A DNA stretch of 64,000 nt from an uncultured Candidatus Saccharibacteria bacterium (GTDB lineage: Bacteria; Patescibacteriota; Saccharimonadia; Saccharimonadales; UBA7683): contig CAZWBG010000003.1 in the NCBI GenBank assembly GCA_964632215.1, positions 7,833-71,832 on the forward strand, written 5' to 3'. The notes beneath the pieces were generated by a model, which made no database searches, was not told the DNA's origin, and saw only the letters and a program-made list of their open reading frames with translations. Below are positions 5,883-30,085 of this stretch, piece after piece. Within the stretch, counting starts at the first letter, position 1, and every line of letters begins with the position of its first letter. The translations under genes were made by a program, and so were the position numbers.

Positions 5883-6007
5883 TACCAGGGTGCAGATGAT
5901 GCCTTTGCCTTCGCATCATTTGAAGCAGCTGAACGTGGCTGGGATCGTGCCTCAAATCAGTATTGGCCACAAAAGAAGTACTAGAAGCAGAAGTCAATGA
6001 TCTCCTC

Positions 6008-6550
6008 TCAGAACAGGAACCAGGCCGCTAGGGCTATTAGGCCAAGCATAAAGATATCGGTGATGCTGGTGACAATTGGTATGAGTATATCGCTGGGGTT
6101 GAGTCGATGCTTCTCCAAGAGTTTGTCTAAGAAAGTAGTGAGACCAAACATAGCAACTATCGTGGTTACCATGGAGATGATAACGAAGAGTATGAACTTA
6201 ATCATGAATACAGATGTAAATAAGTAATCTCGATGCCAGGCAATAAAGACGCTGAGGATGATGATACCGATGATATTGACCCAGATAGCCTTACTAATGG
6301 CTTTGCTGAGCTCTCGTTTGGTGGTGGTCTGTTCAGCTGGATCCGAAGCGTGAGCAGCAATAATGGCCGCGTAATCTCCGACCATGGTATTGAGTGCGGG
6401 CAAGGCAATAATGAGTGGTACAAGCGGAAGTAGTTTCGCTTGTACGGCCTCTAAACTTAGACCACCGATAAGACTCATGCACGAGGCAGCGCCTGTCGTG
6501 AAAGCGATAAAGCCGATACTGCGAACGCGACGCCAGTTCATGTCAGCCAC
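6008..6550 (-). CDS. MgtE/SLC41-type divalent cation transporter membrane domain protein (half-size)
   Basis: Polytopic membrane protein. C-terminal 'RLNPSDILIPIVTSITDIFMLGLIALA' resembles the MgtE TM-domain signature (DPA..s.P.ittl.D..g). No cytosolic CBS or N domain is present. Confidence 0.55.
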   Translation of the reverse strand: MADMNWRRVRSIGFIAFTTGAASCMSLIGGLSLEAVQAKLLPLVPLIIALPALNTMVGDYAAIIAAHASDPAEQTTTKRELSKAISKAIWVNIIGIIILSVFIAWHRDYLFTSVFMIKFILFVIISMVTTIVAMFGLTTFLDKLLEKHRLNPSDILIPIVTSITDIFMLGLIALAAWFLF

Positions 6551-7143
6551 CCAATCACTACTACCATGGTGATGACGCTTAAGATATCAAAAATGGAAGA
6601 TTCAATAGGTCCCACGACATCGTCGGGATTTATTTTAAATGAACGGAAGACGACACTCAGTAAGCCAATAATTGGGAAGCCAATGAGTGCGCTAAGGCCA
6701 ATGGCGCCTAGAGCAAGCCAGAAGACTTGCCAAAATATAGCATCAAAAAACCAAACTGAAAGCCCTGCGCCGACAACTCCAACTAAGATACCTGAGAGCA
6801 GAGAAATAAGTAGAGCAAAACTGACATTACGCAGGAGTACAGGCCACCATTTTGCTTCTAGTTCTTCGAGCTGGTGATTAATCTTGGCGCTTAGCGTTGC
6901 ACCTAGAGAGCCGTCTAAATCAAAAATGCCGGGTAGTACCACAAAGGCTCCGGCCACGAGAGCCAGGGTGCCCTTATTGGTTTCAAGTAGTACTCCTGCT
7001 ATGACTGAACCAACAAGTGAGATAACTTGTGTCCAGGCCATCTGCTTTCCGTTGATACCAAGTGCTCGACGCCGACGCTTTTGGTAAAGATGGTGCCAGT
7101 GACGACCGTTATGGGCTGGCAAGTTCTTGGTTTTTGTGGGCAT
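6538..7143 (-). CDS. MgtE/SLC41-type divalent cation transporter membrane domain protein (half-size), paralog of downstream gene
   Basis: 'FKINPDDVVGPIESSIFDILSVITMVV' matches the same signature. It overlaps the downstream gene by 13 nt. The ORF-track start at 7224 lies inside a terminator hairpin. ATG 7143 (MPTKTK...) is preceded by CATAAT plus 6 nt. Confidence 0.5.
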   Translation of the reverse strand: MPTKTKNLPAHNGRHWHHLYQKRRRRALGINGKQMAWTQVISLVGSVIAGVLLETNKGTLALVAGAFVVLPGIFDLDGSLGATLSAKINHQLEELEAKWWPVLLRNVSFALLISLLSGILVGVVGAGLSVWFFDAIFWQVFWLALGAIGLSALIGFPIIGLLSVVFRSFKINPDDVVGPIESSIFDILSVITMVVVIGWLT

Positions 7144-7289: not shown

Positions 7290-7547
7290 TTAGGTCTTAT
7301 CGAGCATGCGCTCGATCAGGGTTACTACATCGCCAATAGTGACGATATCTTCCAGTTCGGACTCATCAATAGTGATCTTGAACGCCTCTTCCAGCGCCAT
7401 GGTTAGTTCAACCAGATCAAGTGAGTCGGCCTCGAGGTTATCGGCGAAACTTGCTCCGAGTGTTACGAGAGCTTCGTCTACCGCGAGGTATTCGACAACG
7501 ATGGGCTTGAGGCGATTGAGGATATCATCTTGTGATTGGGTGGTCAT
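7290..7547 (-). CDS. acpP: Acyl carrier protein
   Basis: Phosphopantetheine-attachment motif 'LEADSLDLVELTMALEEAF'. The product is ~85 aa from ATG 7547 (MTTQSQDD...). The ORF-track start at 7580 adds 11 unlikely residues. Confidence 0.85.
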   Translation of the reverse strand: MTTQSQDDILNRLKPIVVEYLAVDEALVTLGASFADNLEADSLDLVELTMALEEAFKITIDESELEDIVTIGDVVTLIERMLDKT

Positions 7548-7773
7548 ACTCAACCTTTTTATAGATGGGCGGGTACACACTTAGTGGCGTAAGTTGCGCG
7601 GTTGCGCTCTTACAGACCTCTGGTGATGGTTTGATAGTACGTTAAATGTGACTAAAAAGCGAGCATAAGCATAAAAAATTACCTCTGTAAAAGAGACATC
7701 ATATAGGGAGTAGGGTATACTTTAGGTATGAGTGCGAGAAAAAACCACAGTATCAAAGCATTCTGCTTGATAC

Positions 7774-10443
7774 GTGGCAAGCCTGGCGGAGGTTATGGTG
7801 TCTGAGCGTAAGAAGCTAGCTATTATTGATGGAAAAAGTGTTTTTTATCGTGGATACTACGCTATGCCGAACCTTTCAGCGGCTGACGGTACACCAACTG
7901 GTGGGGTGTACGGCTTTGCAACGCTGGCTATTCAACTAATGAAGCAACTCAAGCCGGATTATGTAGCCGTAGCCTGGGATAAACCAAAAACAAACATTAG
8001 AAAACGCAAAGAAATCTACCCAGCATATAAAGCTGGGCGCAAGCCACCTCCAGATGATTTTTACGCCCAGATTCCTATTTTGCACGAACTGCTTGCTGCG
8101 CTCGGCTGGCCGCTATATGAGCTAGACGATTATGAGGCTGATGACATTATGGCCACCCTTGCCAAAGAGGCTGATAGCCTAGATATTGAGACAGAACTGG
8201 TTACTTCGGATCTGGATGCTTTGCAGGCTATCACGCCATTGACGCATGTCTATATCTTAAAAAAAGGCTTAACAAATATAGAGCGTTTTCATCCAGAGAG
8301 TTTTGAGGCTAAGTACGGTATTCGAGTTGATCAATTTTTGGATCTCAAGAGCCTGAAGGGGGATTCTTCGGATAATATTCCTGGCGTCGCGGGGATAGGT
8401 GAGAAGACGGCCATCCAACTTTTACAGCAGTACGAAACGCTCGATGGTATTTATGAAAATATCGCATTGATTAAAGAATCAACGGCTAAGAAACTTGAAG
8501 CGGGCAAAGAATCCGCCTATATGAGCAAACAAATTGCCACGCTTTGGGTAGATGCACCAGTAAAGTTTAACGAACAAGAGCTTGATGGTAGTAAAATTGA
8601 TGTTAAGGCCTTGAAAGATCTGCTCGAGAAACTTGATTTTCGTACACTCATTCGGCAGTTGCCTGACTATCTTAAAGATCGTGGAGATGGTGGATCAGCC
8701 GTAGATTTTACAGCTGAGGCCTCGCCACAGACTCATGTTAAAAACACGCTGATTACCAAAGGTGCCGACTTACCGACACTTAGCGCGAAAGAACTTTTGG
8801 TTTACGCACGTTGTAGCAAGGCACAGGGGTGTGGCCTGCAATACTTGATTGTTTCACCAGATGAAAAAACGAGTTACACTTTACAATTGGGCAAGGCGCT
8901 CGACGAAAAAATGGTTGCTAAGTGGCTTACAAAAACTTTTGCTCAAACTGAGCTGATAGGACATGATCTTAAGCAGATTCTAAAGGTATTTTTACAGCTT
9001 CAAGTACCGATACCAGCAATTGCTCACGATACCCATCTCGCAGCATTCTTGCTGAATCCTCTGCTCAGAAGTCAGGATTTAAGCGATCTGTTAGAAAAGT
9101 CATTTGGCTTCGGCTCGGGTATTGATAGCGCTTCGCCAGAGGACTTTTTGCAATACGTTGAACAGATTGTAAGTGGTGTCTGGAGATTAACTCAATCTCA
9201 GCGTAAGGAAATGGCACTTTATCCAAAATTTGAGCAGTTGGCACACGATATTGAATGGCCGATTGTGCCGGTACTAGCCAATATGGAATATACCGGAATC
9301 AAGCTGGATAGCCACTATTTAGAAGTGATGAGTCAAGAGTTTACAGGACAGATTAGTGATATCGAACAAGAAATTTACGGCTATGCCGATAAAGAGTTTA
9401 ATATCAGCTCGCCAGCTCAGCTGGCGACGGTTTTGTTTGAGGACCTGAAACTCCCTGTAAAAGGTATTAAAAAAGGTAAGACCGGCTATTCAACAGCTGC
9501 TAGTGAGCTCGATAAACTGCGGTGGTCTCATCCGATAATTAATTTAGTTACTCAGTACCGTGAATACACAAAGCTTAAAAGCACCTATGTGGATACCTTA
9601 CCGAAATTAGCGGATAGCCAAGGCCGCTTGCATACGACATTTAACCTGACAATTGCTCAGACTGGCCGACTTTCAAGCACTGATCCGAATTTGCAGAACA
9701 TACCAATTCGTACCGAGATTGGTAGAAAAATTCGTGAGGCTTTTGTGGCAGGTGAGGGTAATGTATTGGTGAGTGCTGATTACAGTCAGTTTGAGCTTCG
9801 ACTTGCGGCCGCTTTGGCACACGACGAAGAGCTAGTGGAGCTGTTTAATCAAGACGCTGATATTCATACTACAACTGCTGCTCAGGTGTATGACATTAAA
9901 CCACACGAGGTGACACCCGACCAGCGCCGACACGCTAAAGTGATTAACTTTGGGATTCTTTACGGTATGAGCCCGCATGGTCTTTCGGTTGCTACGGGTA
10001 TGAGTGAGATTGAGGCTCGTGAGTTTGTACTCAAGTACAAAGAGCTGCGCAAGCCAATTTTTGACTATACGAATACTTTGATTGAGCAAGCGCGAGAAAA
10101 AGGTTATGTAGAAACGCTATTTGGTCGCCGCCGCCCAATGCCCGATATCCATTCGAGTAACTTTATTGTTCGTTCGAGTGCGGAGCGGGCTGCGATGAAT
10201 ATGCCGATACAAGGAACTGAGGCAGACTTAATGAAACTTGCCATGATAGAAGTTGAAAAAAAACTCCCGGAAGGTGCCAGGCAACTTTTGCAGATCCATG
10301 ACTCAATTATTGTTGAATGTTCTGAAAAACAAGCTGAGACGATAGAGAGGTTACTAGCTGAGACGATGGAAAATATCTACAAAGAATTGCCCGTAAAACT
10401 CAAAGTAGACGTCCATACTGGCAAAACCTGGGGTGAGCTGTGA
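7774..10443 (+). CDS. polA: DNA polymerase I
   Basis: 5'-nuclease domain ('GDSSDNIPGVAGIGEKTA'). Pol A motif 'LVSADYSQFELRLAA', motif B 'RRHAKVINFGILYGMS' and motif C 'LLQIHDSIIVE'. The start may be ATG 7795, which follows GGAGG. Confidence 0.95.
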   Translation: MASLAEVMVSERKKLAIIDGKSVFYRGYYAMPNLSAADGTPTGGVYGFATLAIQLMKQLKPDYVAVAWDKPKTNIRKRKEIYPAYKAGRKPPPDDFYAQIPILHELLAALGWPLYELDDYEADDIMATLAKEADSLDIETELVTSDLDALQAITPLTHVYILKKGLTNIERFHPESFEAKYGIRVDQFLDLKSLKGDSSDNIPGVAGIGEKTAIQLLQQYETLDGIYENIALIKESTAKKLEAGKESAYMSKQIATLWVDAPVKFNEQELDGSKIDVKALKDLLEKLDFRTLIRQLPDYLKDRGDGGSAVDFTAEASPQTHVKNTLITKGADLPTLSAKELLVYARCSKAQGCGLQYLIVSPDEKTSYTLQLGKALDEKMVAKWLTKTFAQTELIGHDLKQILKVFLQLQVPIPAIAHDTHLAAFLLNPLLRSQDLSDLLEKSFGFGSGIDSASPEDFLQYVEQIVSGVWRLTQSQRKEMALYPKFEQLAHDIEWPIVPVLANMEYTGIKLDSHYLEVMSQEFTGQISDIEQEIYGYADKEFNISSPAQLATVLFEDLKLPVKGIKKGKTGYSTAASELDKLRWSHPIINLVTQYREYTKLKSTYVDTLPKLADSQGRLHTTFNLTIAQTGRLSSTDPNLQNIPIRTEIGRKIREAFVAGEGNVLVSADYSQFELRLAAALAHDEELVELFNQDADIHTTTAAQVYDIKPHEVTPDQRRHAKVINFGILYGMSPHGLSVATGMSEIEAREFVLKYKELRKPIFDYTNTLIEQAREKGYVETLFGRRRPMPDIHSSNFIVRSSAERAAMNMPIQGTEADLMKLAMIEVEKKLPEGARQLLQIHDSIIVECSEKQAETIERLLAETMENIYKELPVKLKVDVHTGKTWGEL

Positions 10444-26342: not shown

Positions 26343-26468
26343 TACGCTCGTGGAGCTGTCTTTGTTGAAGAAAGCAAAAGAGGTGCTTATTGCACCGAGT
26401 TTCATCGTACTAGAATAGGCGACTACCAGATTGATAATGCACAGAACATAGTCGATATTACACGATAG
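26343..26468 (+). pseudogene. Relic of a truB 3' end (copy 2)
   Basis: 26388-26468 translates to 'YCTEFHRTRIGDYQIDNAQNIVDITR*', against truB 'YCTELRRTRIGDYQIKYAKNIEDIIKST*'. The alignment is gapless, with 18/26 aa and about 55/75 nt identical by hand. Weaker similarity continues upstream ('KRGAYCTE' vs 'KTGAYCTE'). Confidence 0.8.
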
Positions 26469-26494
26469 TTCCTAGTTCCTAGTAAATTAGGAAC
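26469..26494. promoter_or_regulatory. Candidate operator: three TTCCTA(G) half-sites (two direct, one inverted)
   Basis: The sequence ttcctag-ttcctag-taaat-taggaa lies immediately upstream of the -10 box of the wHTH-PRTase gene. Confidence 0.35.
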
Positions 26495-26499
26495 CTTTA

Positions 26500-26508
26500 T
26501 GATATACT
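26500..26508 (+). promoter_or_regulatory. Extended -10 box (TGaTATACT) 6 nt upstream of GTG 26515; leaderless candidate
   Basis: Sequence reads TGA-TATACT-cactac-GTG. An in-frame stop at 26500-26502 leaves GTG 26515 as the only available start. Confidence 0.45.
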
Positions 26509-26514
26509 CACTAC

Positions 26515-27492
26515 GTGAAAACATCAGAAAAAATTATCCGATATATTAAAAAACACCAACAGGTTACAGGTGTTGAATTGGCAGATTATCTTGATATTGG
26601 TGATCGAGCGGTACGTAAACAGCTGAAAACATTGCTTGATGGGGGAAAAATTCACAAGATTGGTAAGCCACCCAGGGTATACTATTATTTCAATACACAA
26701 GAAGTGTCAGAAGAACCTGTTGCTATACAACTTGATCCAGACACTCGGGATCTTATTGAAGAGAATTTCTATCATGTTACTCCAGTAGGGAACATACTTG
26801 AAGGGGTGGCAGGGTTTGTGGCTTGGTGTACCGCCAGGAATACCGATCCAGCTCATATGGCGGCCCAGTATTGGCAGGTGTATGAAAAATATGATAAGTA
26901 TCGTATCGATGGACTGGTTGACGGTACCAAAAAGCTACAGACTACCTTTGACAAGACGATGCTTGACGAACTTTTTTACATTGATTTTTATAGTGTGGAG
27001 ATATTTGGTAAAACTAAACTAGGTCAAATGCTTCTTTTCGCAAAGCAGAGTCAAGACAGATCACTGATTAACCAGGTTGCAGACATTGTTGCACCTCGAG
27101 TACGAAAAGTGATAAAAGACTATAAAATTGAGGCAGTTGGCTTTATACCACCAACCGTGAAGCGTGAACTGCAATTTATGAAACAGATTGAGAAGAGACT
27201 GCAGCTAGAATTGCCGGTAATTCCAATTTTAAAGATCAAGACCCCGGTAGTTGTCCCACAAAAAACACTTTCAAAACTTCAAGACAGGGTGATGAATGCT
27301 CAGAATACTATCAAAGTGGGTGGTCATACACCATATAAAAATATATTGCTGATAGACGACGCAGTTGGATCAGGAGCTACTTTGCAAGAAACTGCTCGTA
27401 AATTGCGCCAGAAAGGACTTGCAGAAGGCAGCATCATAGGACTTGCAATTACTGGCAGTATCAAGGGATTCGATGTAATTAGTGAGGTATAG
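26515..27492 (+). CDS. wHTH domain fused to ComF/GntX-like phosphoribosyltransferase
   Basis: N-terminal wHTH 'VTGVELADYLDIGDRAVRKQLKTLLDGGKIHKIG'. C-terminal PRTase PRPP loop 'ILLIDDAVGSGATLQETARKL', preceded by a ComF-like 'VGFIPPT...' segment. The Cys4 zinc finger typical of ComFC is absent. Confidence 0.65.
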   Translation: MKTSEKIIRYIKKHQQVTGVELADYLDIGDRAVRKQLKTLLDGGKIHKIGKPPRVYYYFNTQEVSEEPVAIQLDPDTRDLIEENFYHVTPVGNILEGVAGFVAWCTARNTDPAHMAAQYWQVYEKYDKYRIDGLVDGTKKLQTTFDKTMLDELFYIDFYSVEIFGKTKLGQMLLFAKQSQDRSLINQVADIVAPRVRKVIKDYKIEAVGFIPPTVKRELQFMKQIEKRLQLELPVIPILKIKTPVVVPQKTLSKLQDRVMNAQNTIKVGGHTPYKNILLIDDAVGSGATLQETARKLRQKGLAEGSIIGLAITGSIKGFDVISEV

Positions 27493-27626
27493 CCTCCGCC
27501 GCACTAGAGTAGATGAGTACTTAATTGCGAGTACCTGGACCATTGACGAGATACCTAAATAAACATATAGTTTACTCAGCTTTCGGGGGATCCTGAAGGT
27601 GTACCTATCAATCAAGGAGGTCCACC

Positions 27627-28334
27627 ATGGCGGTGGAGCAGTATATGCGAGAAGGTTCACTGCTCGTCAGTGACGAACGCCTCACGGAGCGTAAAGCTCG
27701 CCAGCAGCTGCTGAGTGAGACGGGGTTCGAACAGGTGCTCTCCTACGAGGAGACCCAGGTCCATCGGCTTGAGATGGCCAAGCTGGTCTTCACTGAGTTG
27801 ACGGGGAAAGAGCTGACCATGTGGCGTCGGTTTCTGCCGACTACGGTCTCCACTGAACAATATCGTTTCGATCAGCCGCCAACCGAAGTACTCGAGGTCA
27901 TCAAGGCGGCTCAAGCGATGCAGTGTTTTGATCGGATCGAAATCTGGACACCAGAAGGTAACAACGTACGTGGGGCCATTGCTCGTGTGATCAAACGAGG
28001 GGTCAACCGTGTTACCAACTTTCTGGCTGAGATCGATCCGATGGCGGTTGGAGTAATCAATGGCGCCGACAACGCTCCGTGCTACTACCCGATTGTGCGT
28101 TGGGGCGAGAGTCTCTTGCCCGTCAAGCGAATAAAGGCCCATGTTAGACATACCCGCTTAGGTGTGCGTACCGTCGCCACACTGTTGGCCATGGTCATCC
28201 TGGCTGCGCTCGGTGGAGCAGTTTTCGGCATCGCTGCGATGGCCGCCGCTTTCGGCTGGTGGCTACTCCTCTGTGCGGCTGTGGTGGTTATTGTTGTCGC
28301 GTGGTTGGGGCGCGGCGTTTACCTCTTGTGGTGA
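27627..28334 (+). CDS. Hypothetical protein with C-terminal double TM anchor, encoded in a GC-rich (foreign) patch
   Basis: Strong SD AAGGAGG lies 7 nt upstream. A soluble ~170-aa N-domain is followed by 'VATLLAMVILAALGGAVFGIAAMAAAFGWWLLLCAAVVVIVVAWLG'. Hand GC counts are 36/60 and 40/60 nt inside the gene versus 18/60 in the neighbouring gene. Confidence 0.7.
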   Translation: MAVEQYMREGSLLVSDERLTERKARQQLLSETGFEQVLSYEETQVHRLEMAKLVFTELTGKELTMWRRFLPTTVSTEQYRFDQPPTEVLEVIKAAQAMQCFDRIEIWTPEGNNVRGAIARVIKRGVNRVTNFLAEIDPMAVGVINGADNAPCYYPIVRWGESLLPVKRIKAHVRHTRLGVRTVATLLAMVILAALGGAVFGIAAMAAAFGWWLLLCAAVVVIVVAWLGRGVYLLW

Positions 28335-28504
28335 CCTAGTTCAGCCGACTTTCCTTAACGGACTACATAGCCTCATCCTGATGTATCAGGATGGTCCGTG
28401 CCCTGCTGCACATATATTTGTGCGCGGGGTGTAGGCGTCCTACTTGCGTAGCAACTGATGAGACCTAGGAAGTTTAGGTCGAATAGGACAAAAGATGAGT
28501 ACGT

Positions 28505-28650
28505 GTGAGCTCTACCCACACGATTTACTTTGAGAACTTCTCGGCAGTGGTGTTCTCTTGGGATTGGTACTTTATTGTACCGACCCCTGCCACACTAAAA
28601 CAGGCAACTACAGTATTGAAAATGCCCTGAATATTGACAATATAGCCTAG
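28505..28650 (+). pseudogene. Relic of a truB 3' end (copy 3, more decayed)
   Basis: 28573-28650 translates to 'YCTDPCHTKTGNYSIENALNIDNIA*' and aligns without gaps to both other copies (YCT[ED]...T[RK].G[DN]Y.I..A.NI..I). A possible frameshifted 'VSS...' segment begins at 28505. Confidence 0.65.
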
Positions 28651-28663
28651 AGTATGCTATAAT
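28634..28663 (+). promoter_or_regulatory. Consensus sigma-70 promoter (TTGACA-18-TATAAT)
   Basis: The -35 TTGACA (28634-28639) lies inside the last codons of truB relic 3. The -10 TATAAT is at 28658-28663. The promoter drives the 28706 gene. Confidence 0.6.
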
Positions 28664-28705: not shown

Positions 28706-30085
28706 ATGAAGAACTATGAAACAAACACCAAGTTAAAGAATCCAGGTATTCCTAAAAGCCGCGAGATCTTTGTAGGCGATATTAACGACGCTGTCATCAA
28801 AGTACAGCAGGTTACTGGCTTTGAGGTTACACCTGAATGGTGGATGAGTGAAGTTGGTAATGAGGGTGCGACCGAAGACATACTCGACCGCTTCGACAGA
28901 GCATTTGAGCAGTTTATTCACCTACAAATGAGTACAGCTGAATCTAGCGAGGTTGAGAATGCGACGATTTCCGAAGCTGATAAGCAGTTAGACGAGTTTG
29001 ATCAGGCAATGCCAAAAACAGAAGCAGATGTTCAGCTTCGAGAGGAGTTCCTTGAGGAGCTCGCAGAACATCTGAAGGAGAAATATTGCTCAGAGAAGCC
29101 AGAAGTAGTAGGTACCGACCCCAGAGACCAGATACTTCTATCAGGATCCGTAGAGTACTTAGCGGCGGAGCAGGCACGTAAAGAGCTTGAAGACCCGGTA
29201 ACGCGAATCGTGGAGCTTCACTACTCGAGCGAAGGTCGAGAGATTACGCTTCTTGGCACGAACCACACTTTTGACCCTGATGACCCAGGGATCGCTTATT
29301 TAGACAGTTTTGTGAGAGAAAAGGCGAGTAACCCGCGAACGGTATTTATTCTCGAGGGTCAGTACAGTAAAACCGAAGCGCCAATGACCAATCCAGTTGA
29401 TGCGGTGATAACTGGCGGCGAATTTAACTACACGGCTTCTTTGGCTAATCAACTTGGTGTTGAATATATTCCAGCTGAACCTGATCCCAGGACTAATGCT
29501 GAACAGATCTTAGTGGAAAACCCAGAGATTACTCGTGAAGAAGTAGCTTTGCACTACACGGTGAAAACATTGTCAGCATTATTCAAAGATCAGGATGAAC
29601 AGCCTCTAGCTGATATTTCTCCGTATGTTTATTGCAGCGCAGGTATTGGCGGTACCACAGAAGACGGAGGAGTAGTTGAAAAAAGTTTCAGTAGGACCGA
29701 CATTCTAGAAATTAGCGATGATCTGCGGGGTAAGATTAATCTTGCTATGCCACAGCTTATCGAACAGCTCAACGAAGTATTTATTAAAGTTGTACCTGGG
29801 GAGACCTTACTGGAATTAATAGATGATGACGTCGTGAAACTAGTGTATAACCTTAATAGTCAACCGGTGCTTTGGGATCCTGCACCCGAACTCTCAAATC
29901 GTGAACCAACTGTCATAACGAAAATATCACAACTAGATATGCTTATGAGAGACCGTCACACGTTTAGTCTTATGCAGCAAGCACTGGATGAGGGTAAGGA
30001 GCCCGTAGTGGCTGTTGGAAGCTCGCATGTGAGTACACTAGGTCCAGCCATGGATGCAGCATACAAAAAATCAGAAGAGCAGTAG
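28706..30085 (+). CDS. TraB/GumN-like (erythromycin-esterase superfamily) protein with acidic N-terminal region
   Basis: 'ITLLGTNHTFDP...VFILEG' and C-terminal 'MRDRHTFSLMQQAL...PVVAVGSSHVSTLG' resemble the TraB/PrgY/GumN motifs (GTaH...E, RD..m, vGagH). The assignment is by eye only. Confidence 0.4.
   Translation: MKNYETNTKLKNPGIPKSREIFVGDINDAVIKVQQVTGFEVTPEWWMSEVGNEGATEDILDRFDRAFEQFIHLQMSTAESSEVENATISEADKQLDEFDQAMPKTEADVQLREEFLEELAEHLKEKYCSEKPEVVGTDPRDQILLSGSVEYLAAEQARKELEDPVTRIVELHYSSEGREITLLGTNHTFDPDDPGIAYLDSFVREKASNPRTVFILEGQYSKTEAPMTNPVDAVITGGEFNYTASLANQLGVEYIPAEPDPRTNAEQILVENPEITREEVALHYTVKTLSALFKDQDEQPLADISPYVYCSAGIGGTTEDGGVVEKSFSRTDILEISDDLRGKINLAMPQLIEQLNEVFIKVVPGETLLELIDDDVVKLVYNLNSQPVLWDPAPELSNREPTVITKISQLDMLMRDRHTFSLMQQALDEGKEPVVAVGSSHVSTLGPAMDAAYKKSEEQ

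Follow-up and report, generated by a model that had tools for sequence, protein, structure and literature searches.

The locus analysed here raises the question of what a protein joining a winged helix-turn-helix (wHTH) to a ComF-type phosphoribosyltransferase (PRT) domain does in a bacterium with a tiny genome. Its gene, open reading frame (ORF) A, lies in a 64,000-nucleotide stretch of contig CAZWBG010000003.1 from an uncultured Candidatus Saccharibacteria bacterium; this whole stretch is called the window below. Saccharibacteria belong to the Candidate Phyla Radiation (CPR, or Patescibacteria), which accounts for a large share of bacterial diversity, has tiny genomes, and in which very few regulators are understood. 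A first-pass annotation had proposed that ORF A and the transmembrane protein encoded downstream, ORF B, form a toxin or defence-type module inside an island. We found instead that ORF A is a stand-alone gene and that its family spans all major Patescibacteria lineages. That its product is an autoregulated DNA-binding sensor-regulator working in a feedback loop is our leading interpretation, for which the arguments on either side are about evenly balanced. The features on which the argument is built are the following.

26468..26494, no strand assigned: operator of three 7-bp half-sites, GTTCCTA GTTCCTA gtaaat TAGGAAC (sequence reading)
26500..26508, + strand: extended -10 box TGaTATACT of ORF A, ending 6 nt before the start codon (sequence reading)
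26515..27492, + strand: ORF A, wHTH–ComF-type PRT protein of the CPR-wide family, 325 aa, GTG start (ORF list, profile matches, alignment)
26515..26694, + strand: winged helix-turn-helix, aa 1-60, with the recognition helix at aa 30-42 (Pfam HTH_11, AlphaFold2 (AF2) model)
26737..26961, + strand: middle domain, aa 75-149 (alignment of homologues; the AF2 model is confident here)
26962..27492, + strand: ComF-type PRT core, aa 150-325 (profile matches, alignment, fold search)

Three half-sites beside a -10 box had already been noticed upstream of ORF A, and this reading holds, the repeats at 26468-26494 being followed by TGaTATACT. They form a near-palindrome, AGTTCCTAGT-nn-AyTAGGAACy, with a third direct copy, and the inverted repeat occurs once in the 64-kb window against 0.00 expected (100 shuffles). 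The operator covers the place where a -35 box would sit. The GTG located 6 nt after the -10 box is the first possible start and the one originally stated, and since homologues align from residue 1 (MKTSEKI...) we consider it right. No Shine-Dalgarno (SD) sequence is visible before it. As the -10 box lies so close to the start codon (6-7 nt in Saccharibacteria), transcription probably yields a leaderless mRNA. In the homologous loci of Saccharibacteria the elements are arranged alike, as operator-TTTTnTGnTAnnCT-6/7 nt-ATG.

We compared the window locus with 81 fetched loci carrying an ORF A homologue, each taken with 6 kb on either side. The family operator, seen at nearly all homologues, consists of a 22-bp palindrome, AGTT-NNN-AGT-nn-ACT-NNN-AACT, and a third 7-bp unit on either side of it. 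With at most one mismatch in total, the three-heptamer operator was present upstream of 66 of the 82 family genes, versus 5 of 649 control genes in the same loci. In every case it covers part of the core promoter of the family gene, be it the -35 box, the -10 box or the transcription start; outside Saccharibacteria, either the centre of the palindrome contains the -10 box or the operator begins at +1.

The variable triplet of the operator differs by lineage (CCT in 39 loci, TAC in 11, GAC in 9 and CAT in 6), and all three copies change together. The recognition helix changes with it. CCT operators are accompanied by the helix xDRAVRKQL, with R34 in 39/39 loci, CAT operators by xRAVFKQL, GAC operators by SRQALFKHL, and TAC operators by SRQAIHRIL or SRMAVSKQL. 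Residue 34 is F or Y with CAT and GAC, and H or S with TAC in 10 of the 11 loci (F in one). When mutual information with the operator triplet was calculated for all 325 positions, the four highest-ranking ones (34, 30, 19 and 31) were all located in the wHTH. Position 34 carries 1.31 of 1.59 bits, a value reached in 0 of 2000 permutations. The specificity residues in ORF A are D30, R31 and R34, plus G19. A tree of aa 61-325 shows about 15 independent switches of operator class and about 13 changes of residue 34, and in view of these repeated operator switches the covariation does not reflect shared ancestry only. Among pairs at least 75 % identical in aa 61-325, the identity of the recognition helix was 0.89 if the operator was the same (n=25) and 0.30 if it was different (n=8). 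Operator conservation, helix–triplet covariation and independent switching together make it well supported that the wHTH of ORF A recognises the triple operator on its own promoter, and the autoregulation suggested in the first-pass annotation thereby gains strong support, the firmest result of this analysis, from phylogenetic footprinting and from the protein–operator covariation. Repression of this promoter would follow from the position of the operator.

Comparison of close relatives suggests that the first ~42 codons and the operator undergo either cassette-like replacement or very fast co-evolution. Two pairs of close relatives, L028 with L071 and L035 with L056, are 85-90 % identical in aa 61-325, share ~29-36 % of the helix and have CCT versus TAC operators; in the former pair the body is 90 % identical and the helix 29 %. 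Locus L088 contains two tandem paralogues (5974-6966 and 7309-8286), which are 44 % identical and have different recognition helices. Their operators are of the AGTTCATAGT type and of the form CAGGTTAA-TA-TTAACCTG, making an orthogonal pair in one genome. The family offers a cis-element and a specificity code, from residue 34 to operator triplet, that can be tested: if the code is true, R34F, or D30R/R31Q/R34H, would retarget ORF A to AGTTCATAGT or AGTTTACAGT operators. It would also provide a natural set of orthogonal repressor–operator pairs for genetics in Saccharibacteria and other CPR.

Regarding the protein itself, the description of ORF A as a fusion of a winged HTH and a ComF-type PRTase was correct, the PRT profiles matching below their cut-offs. 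Pfam HTH_11 covers residues 5-46 (E=1.1e-5). In the C-terminal third, PF00156 is hit below threshold with E=3.8e-4, and the best NCBIfam match, TIGR00201 comF (E=1.3e-7), reaches 31.7 bits versus a cut-off of 233.55 and aligns with aa 247-310 only. In the AF2 model (pLDDT 87), a canonical wHTH (H3-14, E16-18, H19-26, H30-42, E47-49, E56-58) is followed by a confidently modelled middle domain and the PRT core. Foldseek ranked ComFC of H. pylori (7p0h, E=1.8e-4) first among the PDB folds, ahead of PyrR (ranks 2-4) and of hypoxanthine-guanine and adenine phosphoribosyltransferases, with ShosT (8zvc) at rank 29. A profile search of PDB sequences gave generic wHTH and PRT matches only.

The alignment of homologues reveals the family-wide invariant motifs FGKTKLGQ, PPTVKRExQ, VPQKTLxKLxDRxxNA, DDAxGSGxT and the C-terminal GFDVISEV. 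Those of the PRT core are probably equivalent to the signature of ComF alignments (RGFNQ, Q...R..N). The loop expected to bind phosphoribosyl pyrophosphate (PRPP), ILLIDDAVGSGAT, is located at 27343-27381; it is the sole such motif in the window and is invariant among the aligned homologues. No Pfam model covers the middle domain (aa 75-149), while the match to the PsyrT profile described below does; its invariant residues are G92, G100, F101, W104, C105, Y119 and G137. As C105 is the single cysteine among the 325 residues, the protein has no Cys4 zinc finger, exactly as noted before, and the middle domain stands in its place. The extreme C-terminus GFDVISEV (window 27469-27489, aa 319-325) hardly varies among family members, although AF2 modelled no other part of the protein with so little confidence (pLDDT <50). 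It ends in S-x-V-COOH, resembling a PDZ-type or protease-recognition tail, and may be a partner or degradation signal.

The family is large. A word-indexed search with ORF A returned >3000 relatives; the 120 best of these are 53-65 % identical over 97-100 % of the query, and almost all measure 320-335 aa. The exhaustive search gave 297 clusters (50 % identity) at E<=1e-30, and a scan of one genome per GTDB species confirmed at least 565 family loci, a lower bound for prevalence within CPR. Members were found in Saccharibacteria, Microgenomates (Levy-, Roizman- and Collierbacteria), Parcubacteria/Paceibacterota (Nealson-, Moran-, Zambryski- and Adlerbacteria), Gracilibacteria, Peribacteria, WWE3, Doudnabacteria and a few metagenome-assembled genomes under other labels. 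Between the same pairs of genomes, identity is 49-61 % for the ORF A family, 35-44 % for S20, 23-42 % for TruB and 23-26 % for HolA, which means that across CPR phyla this family is better conserved than some ribosomal proteins (S20 being the one compared). We found no family member in 2.9 million IMG/VR viral contigs, nothing in plasmids searched by tblastn with ORF A, and no paper describing the family by full-text search. In four loci (L116, L158, L161 and L132) the operator is followed by family genes that are matched only partly by tblastn or are broken by stops; such genes may be pseudogenes, or their hosts may read an alternative, Gracilibacteria-type genetic code.

The genomic context does not fit the cargo of an island or insertion hotspot, as which ORF A had first been seen. 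Its GC content at third codon positions (GC3) is 0.34, and the window, which encodes PolA, RNase J, FtsK, YchF and PNPase, belongs to the core chromosome. Synteny of holA, rpsT and the family gene recurs in L037 and L062, two Patescibacteria loci that are closely related, and in the window holA and rpsT lie ~5 kb upstream of ORF A; on account of the adjacency in L037 and L062, ORF A looks native. It has no conserved neighbour: after clustering of 849 flanking ORFs, the best cluster was present in 8 of the 82 loci. Most gaps between family genes and same-strand neighbours measure from tens of nt up to a few hundred, which is typical of genes expressed separately, and in 32 of 75 family loci the gene upstream is transcribed divergently.

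Among described proteins, the nearest in logic are PurR and GfcR, which are HTH+PRT regulators (PMC8789054, PMC10838023); for PurR, PRPP is the inducer and (p)ppGpp the anti-inducer (PMC8789054). PurR of Bacillus and Lactococcus and the archaeal GfcR share with ORF A an N-terminal winged HTH and a type I PRT domain with a conserved PRPP loop. Both bind promoter operators, and ORF A would do likewise, judging from the conserved triple operator and the covariation; their ligand-gated DNA binding may by analogy be proposed for it too. However, up to E=1 we recovered no PurR-type model from Pfam or NCBIfam, and GfcR (NF045507) only at E=0.17. Unlike in both, the PRT core of ORF A is of ComF type and is preceded by an extra middle domain of ~75 aa. 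In addition, ORF A has a three-heptamer array and no PurBox, its regulon is apparently mostly itself, and its specificity switches often among close relatives. The CPR-wide spread, the extreme conservation, the three-heptamer operator and the cassette-like switching of specificity are unusual traits among HTH+PRT regulators.

One profile match was to a defence protein, the toxin of the anti-phage toxin-antitoxin system PsyrTA. ORF A aa 3-314 align in a single stretch with positions 366-683 of the 689-position PADLOC profile of PsyrT (RqlH) with E=1.4e-19, that is, the wHTH, middle and PRT module is homologous to the C-terminal half of PsyrT. Nothing in ORF A matches the N-terminal ~365 profile positions, which we take to be a RecQ-like helicase. 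From the near-full-length coverage of the module we conclude that ORF A is its stand-alone form, and the family suggests an evolutionary origin for the C-terminal part of PsyrT. Unlike PsyrTA, it is a core-like, CPR-wide single gene with no PsyrA-like neighbour and not a sporadic defence pair. Weaker PADLOC matches were obtained to the retron PRTase_III-A (E=5e-6) and to ShosT (E=1e-4), whose PRT domains are of the same broad type; this similarity is weak and confined to the domain, and there is no DprA-like ShosA and no retron reverse transcriptase or non-coding RNA nearby. The link to PRTase toxins drawn in the first-pass annotation was thus right in terms of homology; the distribution of the family is the reverse of the sporadic pattern of a defence gene.

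ComFC of H. pylori (7P0H) has a type I PRT fold and ComF-like motifs around the flexible loop and the PRPP loop, as has ORF A. Its PRT domain binds PRPP and nucleoside monophosphates, and the study in question names PurR and PyrR as examples of PRT proteins with a regulatory role (PMC9005727). ORF A differs in having a wHTH and a middle domain instead of the 4-Cys zinc finger (double zinc ribbon), in a comF score far below the cut-off, and in the lack of com-gene linkage in the 82 loci. PyrR of Bacillus, which ranks high in Foldseek, acts as uracil phosphoribosyltransferase and as regulator and so sets a precedent for combining ligand binding or catalysis with gene regulation in one PRT protein, although it binds RNA and has no HTH. 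The absence of a zinc finger, of a PsyrT N-terminus and of PsyrA, the low comF score and the lack of any significant PurR or GfcR match place ORF A, by sequence criteria, outside the ComFC, PsyrT, PurR and GfcR families.

We also looked for copies of the operator at other genes. A scan of metagenomes and viral contigs for the CCT-class palindrome yielded 95 triple sites. Of these, 60 immediately precede a family gene (at 1-43 nt in the first batch of the scan) and 21 precede other genes, while 13 lie at the end of a contig and 1 lies within a gene. Sites with the palindrome only numbered 34, of which 2 are at family genes; they are partly due to chance. The non-self targets of triple sites are groES (three contigs), Ham1/ITPase, a holA-like gene, ERF, hicBA, PrgI, a 92-aa zinc-ribbon protein, a 108-aa protein and P-loop kinases, with no unifying theme among them. 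Within 6 kb on either side of 77 family genes there was one extra triple site only, in L032 beside RelE-like genes. This second full operator (~2480-2517, - strand) lies 3.5 kb from the family gene and directly downstream of a RelE/ParE-like gene, within a cluster of duplicated small toxin-antitoxin-like genes; no clear gene follows it.

Several of the individual sites deserve description. On three contigs a CCT triple operator stands 93 nt upstream of groES (Cpn10, E=1.5e-30), at 12059-12078 in L133, 3337-3356 in L170 and 2712-2731 in L204. A TTGACA-17-TATAAT promoter begins 8 nt beyond its end, and a gene for a 433-aa membrane protein points in the divergent direction; groES may be a non-self target of the operator-binding protein. 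Triple or partial CCT operators were also seen 8-50 nt upstream of ERF (L107), a putative hicB-hicA pair without Pfam match (L103), PrgI (L194), the 108-aa protein (L136, L139 and L142) and the 92-aa Zn-ribbon protein (L121 and L172), genes of kinds that mobile elements often carry. Two viral (IMG/VR) contigs, L214 and L218, carry triple or partial operators of the CCT class, and CPR mobile elements may be using the operator of the host protein. A longer perfect palindrome, ATAAGTTCCTAATTAATTAGGAACTTAT, without third repeat, occurs on the viral contigs L212, L213 and L215.

If ORF A is a sensor-regulator, it could work as follows. The winged HTH would bind the three-heptamer operator overlapping its own, probably leaderless, promoter and repress it, binding being supported by the covariation and repression suggested by the position. 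The ComF-type PRT domain with its intact PRPP loop would bind a phosphoribosyl ligand (PRPP, a nucleotide or an alarmone), as motif conservation and the examples of ComFC, PurR and GfcR lead us to expect. Occupancy by the ligand might then shift the affinity for the operator, a step modelled on PurR and GfcR. In most genomes the main target would be the gene itself, with a few lineage-specific extras such as groES, Ham1, a holA-like gene, ERF, HicBA and PrgI, the last three being of the kind often carried on mobile elements. ORF B next to it would be an unrelated, recently acquired neighbour.

Several points weigh against this scheme. The ligand gating of DNA binding is pure analogy, and a regulator that mainly targets itself needs another output. 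The PRT and middle domains exceed S20, TruB and HolA in conservation, which hints at a constrained activity or partner and not mere ligand sensing. With ~0.35 non-self triple sites per self site, the regulon appears small and lineage-specific, its extra targets being few and heterogeneous; this estimate comes from metagenome and viral contigs and family loci, and outside the family loci the scan of metagenomes and viral contigs covered the CCT class only. A broader version of the scheme, which we regard as distinctly unlikely, would make the family a core self-limiting nucleotide/PRPP sensor of CPR and the free-living form of the PsyrT module that is fused to a helicase. Its wHTH–operator unit would evolve like an immunity cassette (~15 swaps, orthogonal between paralogues), and mobile elements (ERF, HicBA, PrgI, putative CPR phage contigs) would exploit the operator. 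If true, this would link host nucleotide status, stress genes (groES, Ham1) and mobile-element control in organisms unable to make nucleotides.

Because a self-targeting protein needs another output and the body of this one is extremely conserved, a serious rival, in our estimate rather unlikely, is that ORF A is an autoregulated effector or trigger enzyme. Its real job would then lie in the PRT and middle domains, as a catalytic PRTase, another PRPP-consuming activity or ComF-like nucleic acid handling, while the wHTH would only cap the dosage of a protein that is required yet harmful in excess; ORF A would be a stand-alone ancestor or relative of the PsyrT C-terminal module with a dual role as in PyrR. 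This agrees with the match to PsyrT over the full length of ORF A and those to the ShosT and retron III-A models, ShosT being a catalytic PRTase/pyrophosphatase toxin (PMC11961720), and with the extreme conservation of the PRT part and its invariant PRPP loop. The tiny regulon and the frequent switches of specificity are likewise expected if DNA binding serves self-control only. On the other hand, catalysis has been shown for no ComF-type PRT (PMC9005727), the 82 loci contain no conserved antitoxin-like partner, inheritance is that of a core gene with no copies in viral contigs or plasmids, and extra operator-bearing targets exist. The family offers a starting point for working out what ComF-type PRT domains, that of ComFC included, do biochemically. 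The role in DNA uptake mentioned as an alternative in the first-pass annotation, with ORF A as a divergent ComFC for transformation whose wHTH and middle domain replace the zinc finger as a DNA or partner module, seems to us highly unlikely. ComFC is indeed the best solved structure and comF the best NCBIfam model, and competence and type IV pili are widespread in CPR (PMC6744442, PMC10633639). However, the comF score is far too low and the zinc finger is missing, and the sequence-specific recognition of a self-operator is not needed by ComFC. Moreover, the saccharibacterium S. epibionticum encodes a separate canonical ComF with a double zinc ribbon, SEML1_0021 (PMC10633639 supplement). The transposon-sequencing supplement of the same study lists this protein and another PRTase, SEML1_0167, and no recognisable member of the ORF A family; neither the window nor any fetched locus yielded a canonical ComFC when searched by motif. 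The family genes are not linked to com, dprA or pil genes, and the type IV pilus locus that had been called nearby is located at 49-56 kb, >22 kb from ORF A. As for the repeats, a consensus scan flags 26468-26494 as terminator-like, and a T-run often follows the palindrome. They could accordingly form a hairpin in RNA or DNA that serves as terminator or insulator, or be bound by some other regulator, readings to which we give next to no credence. A hairpin does not need the third direct copy, the Saccharibacteria motif is upstream of the -10 box and so is not transcribed with the gene, and the upstream gene is often divergent. The triplet also co-varies with the recognition helix of the adjacent gene over ~15 independent switches. 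For all these reasons, including the helix covariation, the palindrome was rejected as a terminator.

The remaining proposal concerns the genes downstream.

27543..27571, + strand: promoter-like site of ORF B, TTGACG-17-TATAGT (consensus scan)
27614-27620, + strand: strong SD of ORF B, AAGGAGG (sequence reading)
27627..28334, + strand: ORF B, 235 aa, with a C-terminal hydrophobic helical tail (ORF list, AF2 model)
28706-30085, + strand: ORF C, 459 aa (ORF list)

ORF B follows ORF A on the same strand after a gap of 134 nt, ORF A has homologues among the PRTase toxins of defence systems, and the composition of ORF B is foreign, as had been claimed: its GC content is 0.571 and its GC3 0.648 versus 0.412+/-0.041 for 27 other ORFs (5.8 standard deviations above). 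The two could therefore form a two-gene toxin-antitoxin or anti-phage module in an island, but we find this extremely improbable. No homologue of ORF B or ORF C occurs within 6 kb of the ORF A homologues in any of the 81 other loci. ORF B has 26 homologues, the named ones from Saccharibacteria, with the motifs WRxFLPT, CFDRIEIWTPEG, IDPMAVGV and IVRWGESL. Three of them on long contigs (loci L006-L010) lie beside rplS/RNase HII, dprA/topA and Ham1/ATPase, with no ORF A there. This is the outcome that the first-pass annotation had itself named as refuting the pairing. The promoter-like site and the SD suggest that ORF B has its own expression signals, and the CPR-wide, core-like conservation of ORF A does not fit a module either. 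PADLOC, run on ORF B, ORF C and nine further neighbours, gave only generic ABC ATPase matches and neither PsyrA nor ShosA. ORF B itself had no Pfam, PADLOC, NCBIfam or PHROG match, and its confident AF2 model (pLDDT 80) no fold match in PDB or BFVD (viral). We conclude that ORF B is an orphan membrane-anchored protein of Saccharibacteria, probably acquired recently, a compositionally foreign neighbour and not a partner of ORF A, and that the adjacency of the two is a matter of chance. A false lead, the defence module, is thereby removed.

Finally, we inspected the stretch downstream of ORF B. Rfam reported nothing at threshold in 24-31 kb. At 28436-28490 (+ strand), ~100 nt downstream of ORF B, there is a sub-threshold match to Hammerhead_3 with 22.1 bits versus a gathering score of 48.5 (E=0.45). 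By eye, a stem III GTCCT/AGGAC, a stem I TTGC-gta-GCAA, a CTGATGAG core, a stem II ACCTA/TAGGT and CGAA can be recognised. The stretch may be inactive or a chance match, because the 15.1-16.1 pair would be U-A rather than A-U. ORF C had no significant Pfam, NCBIfam, PHROG or PADLOC match; it is preceded by a perfect, TG-extended sigma-70 consensus promoter, TTGACA-18-TATAAT, at 28634-28663.

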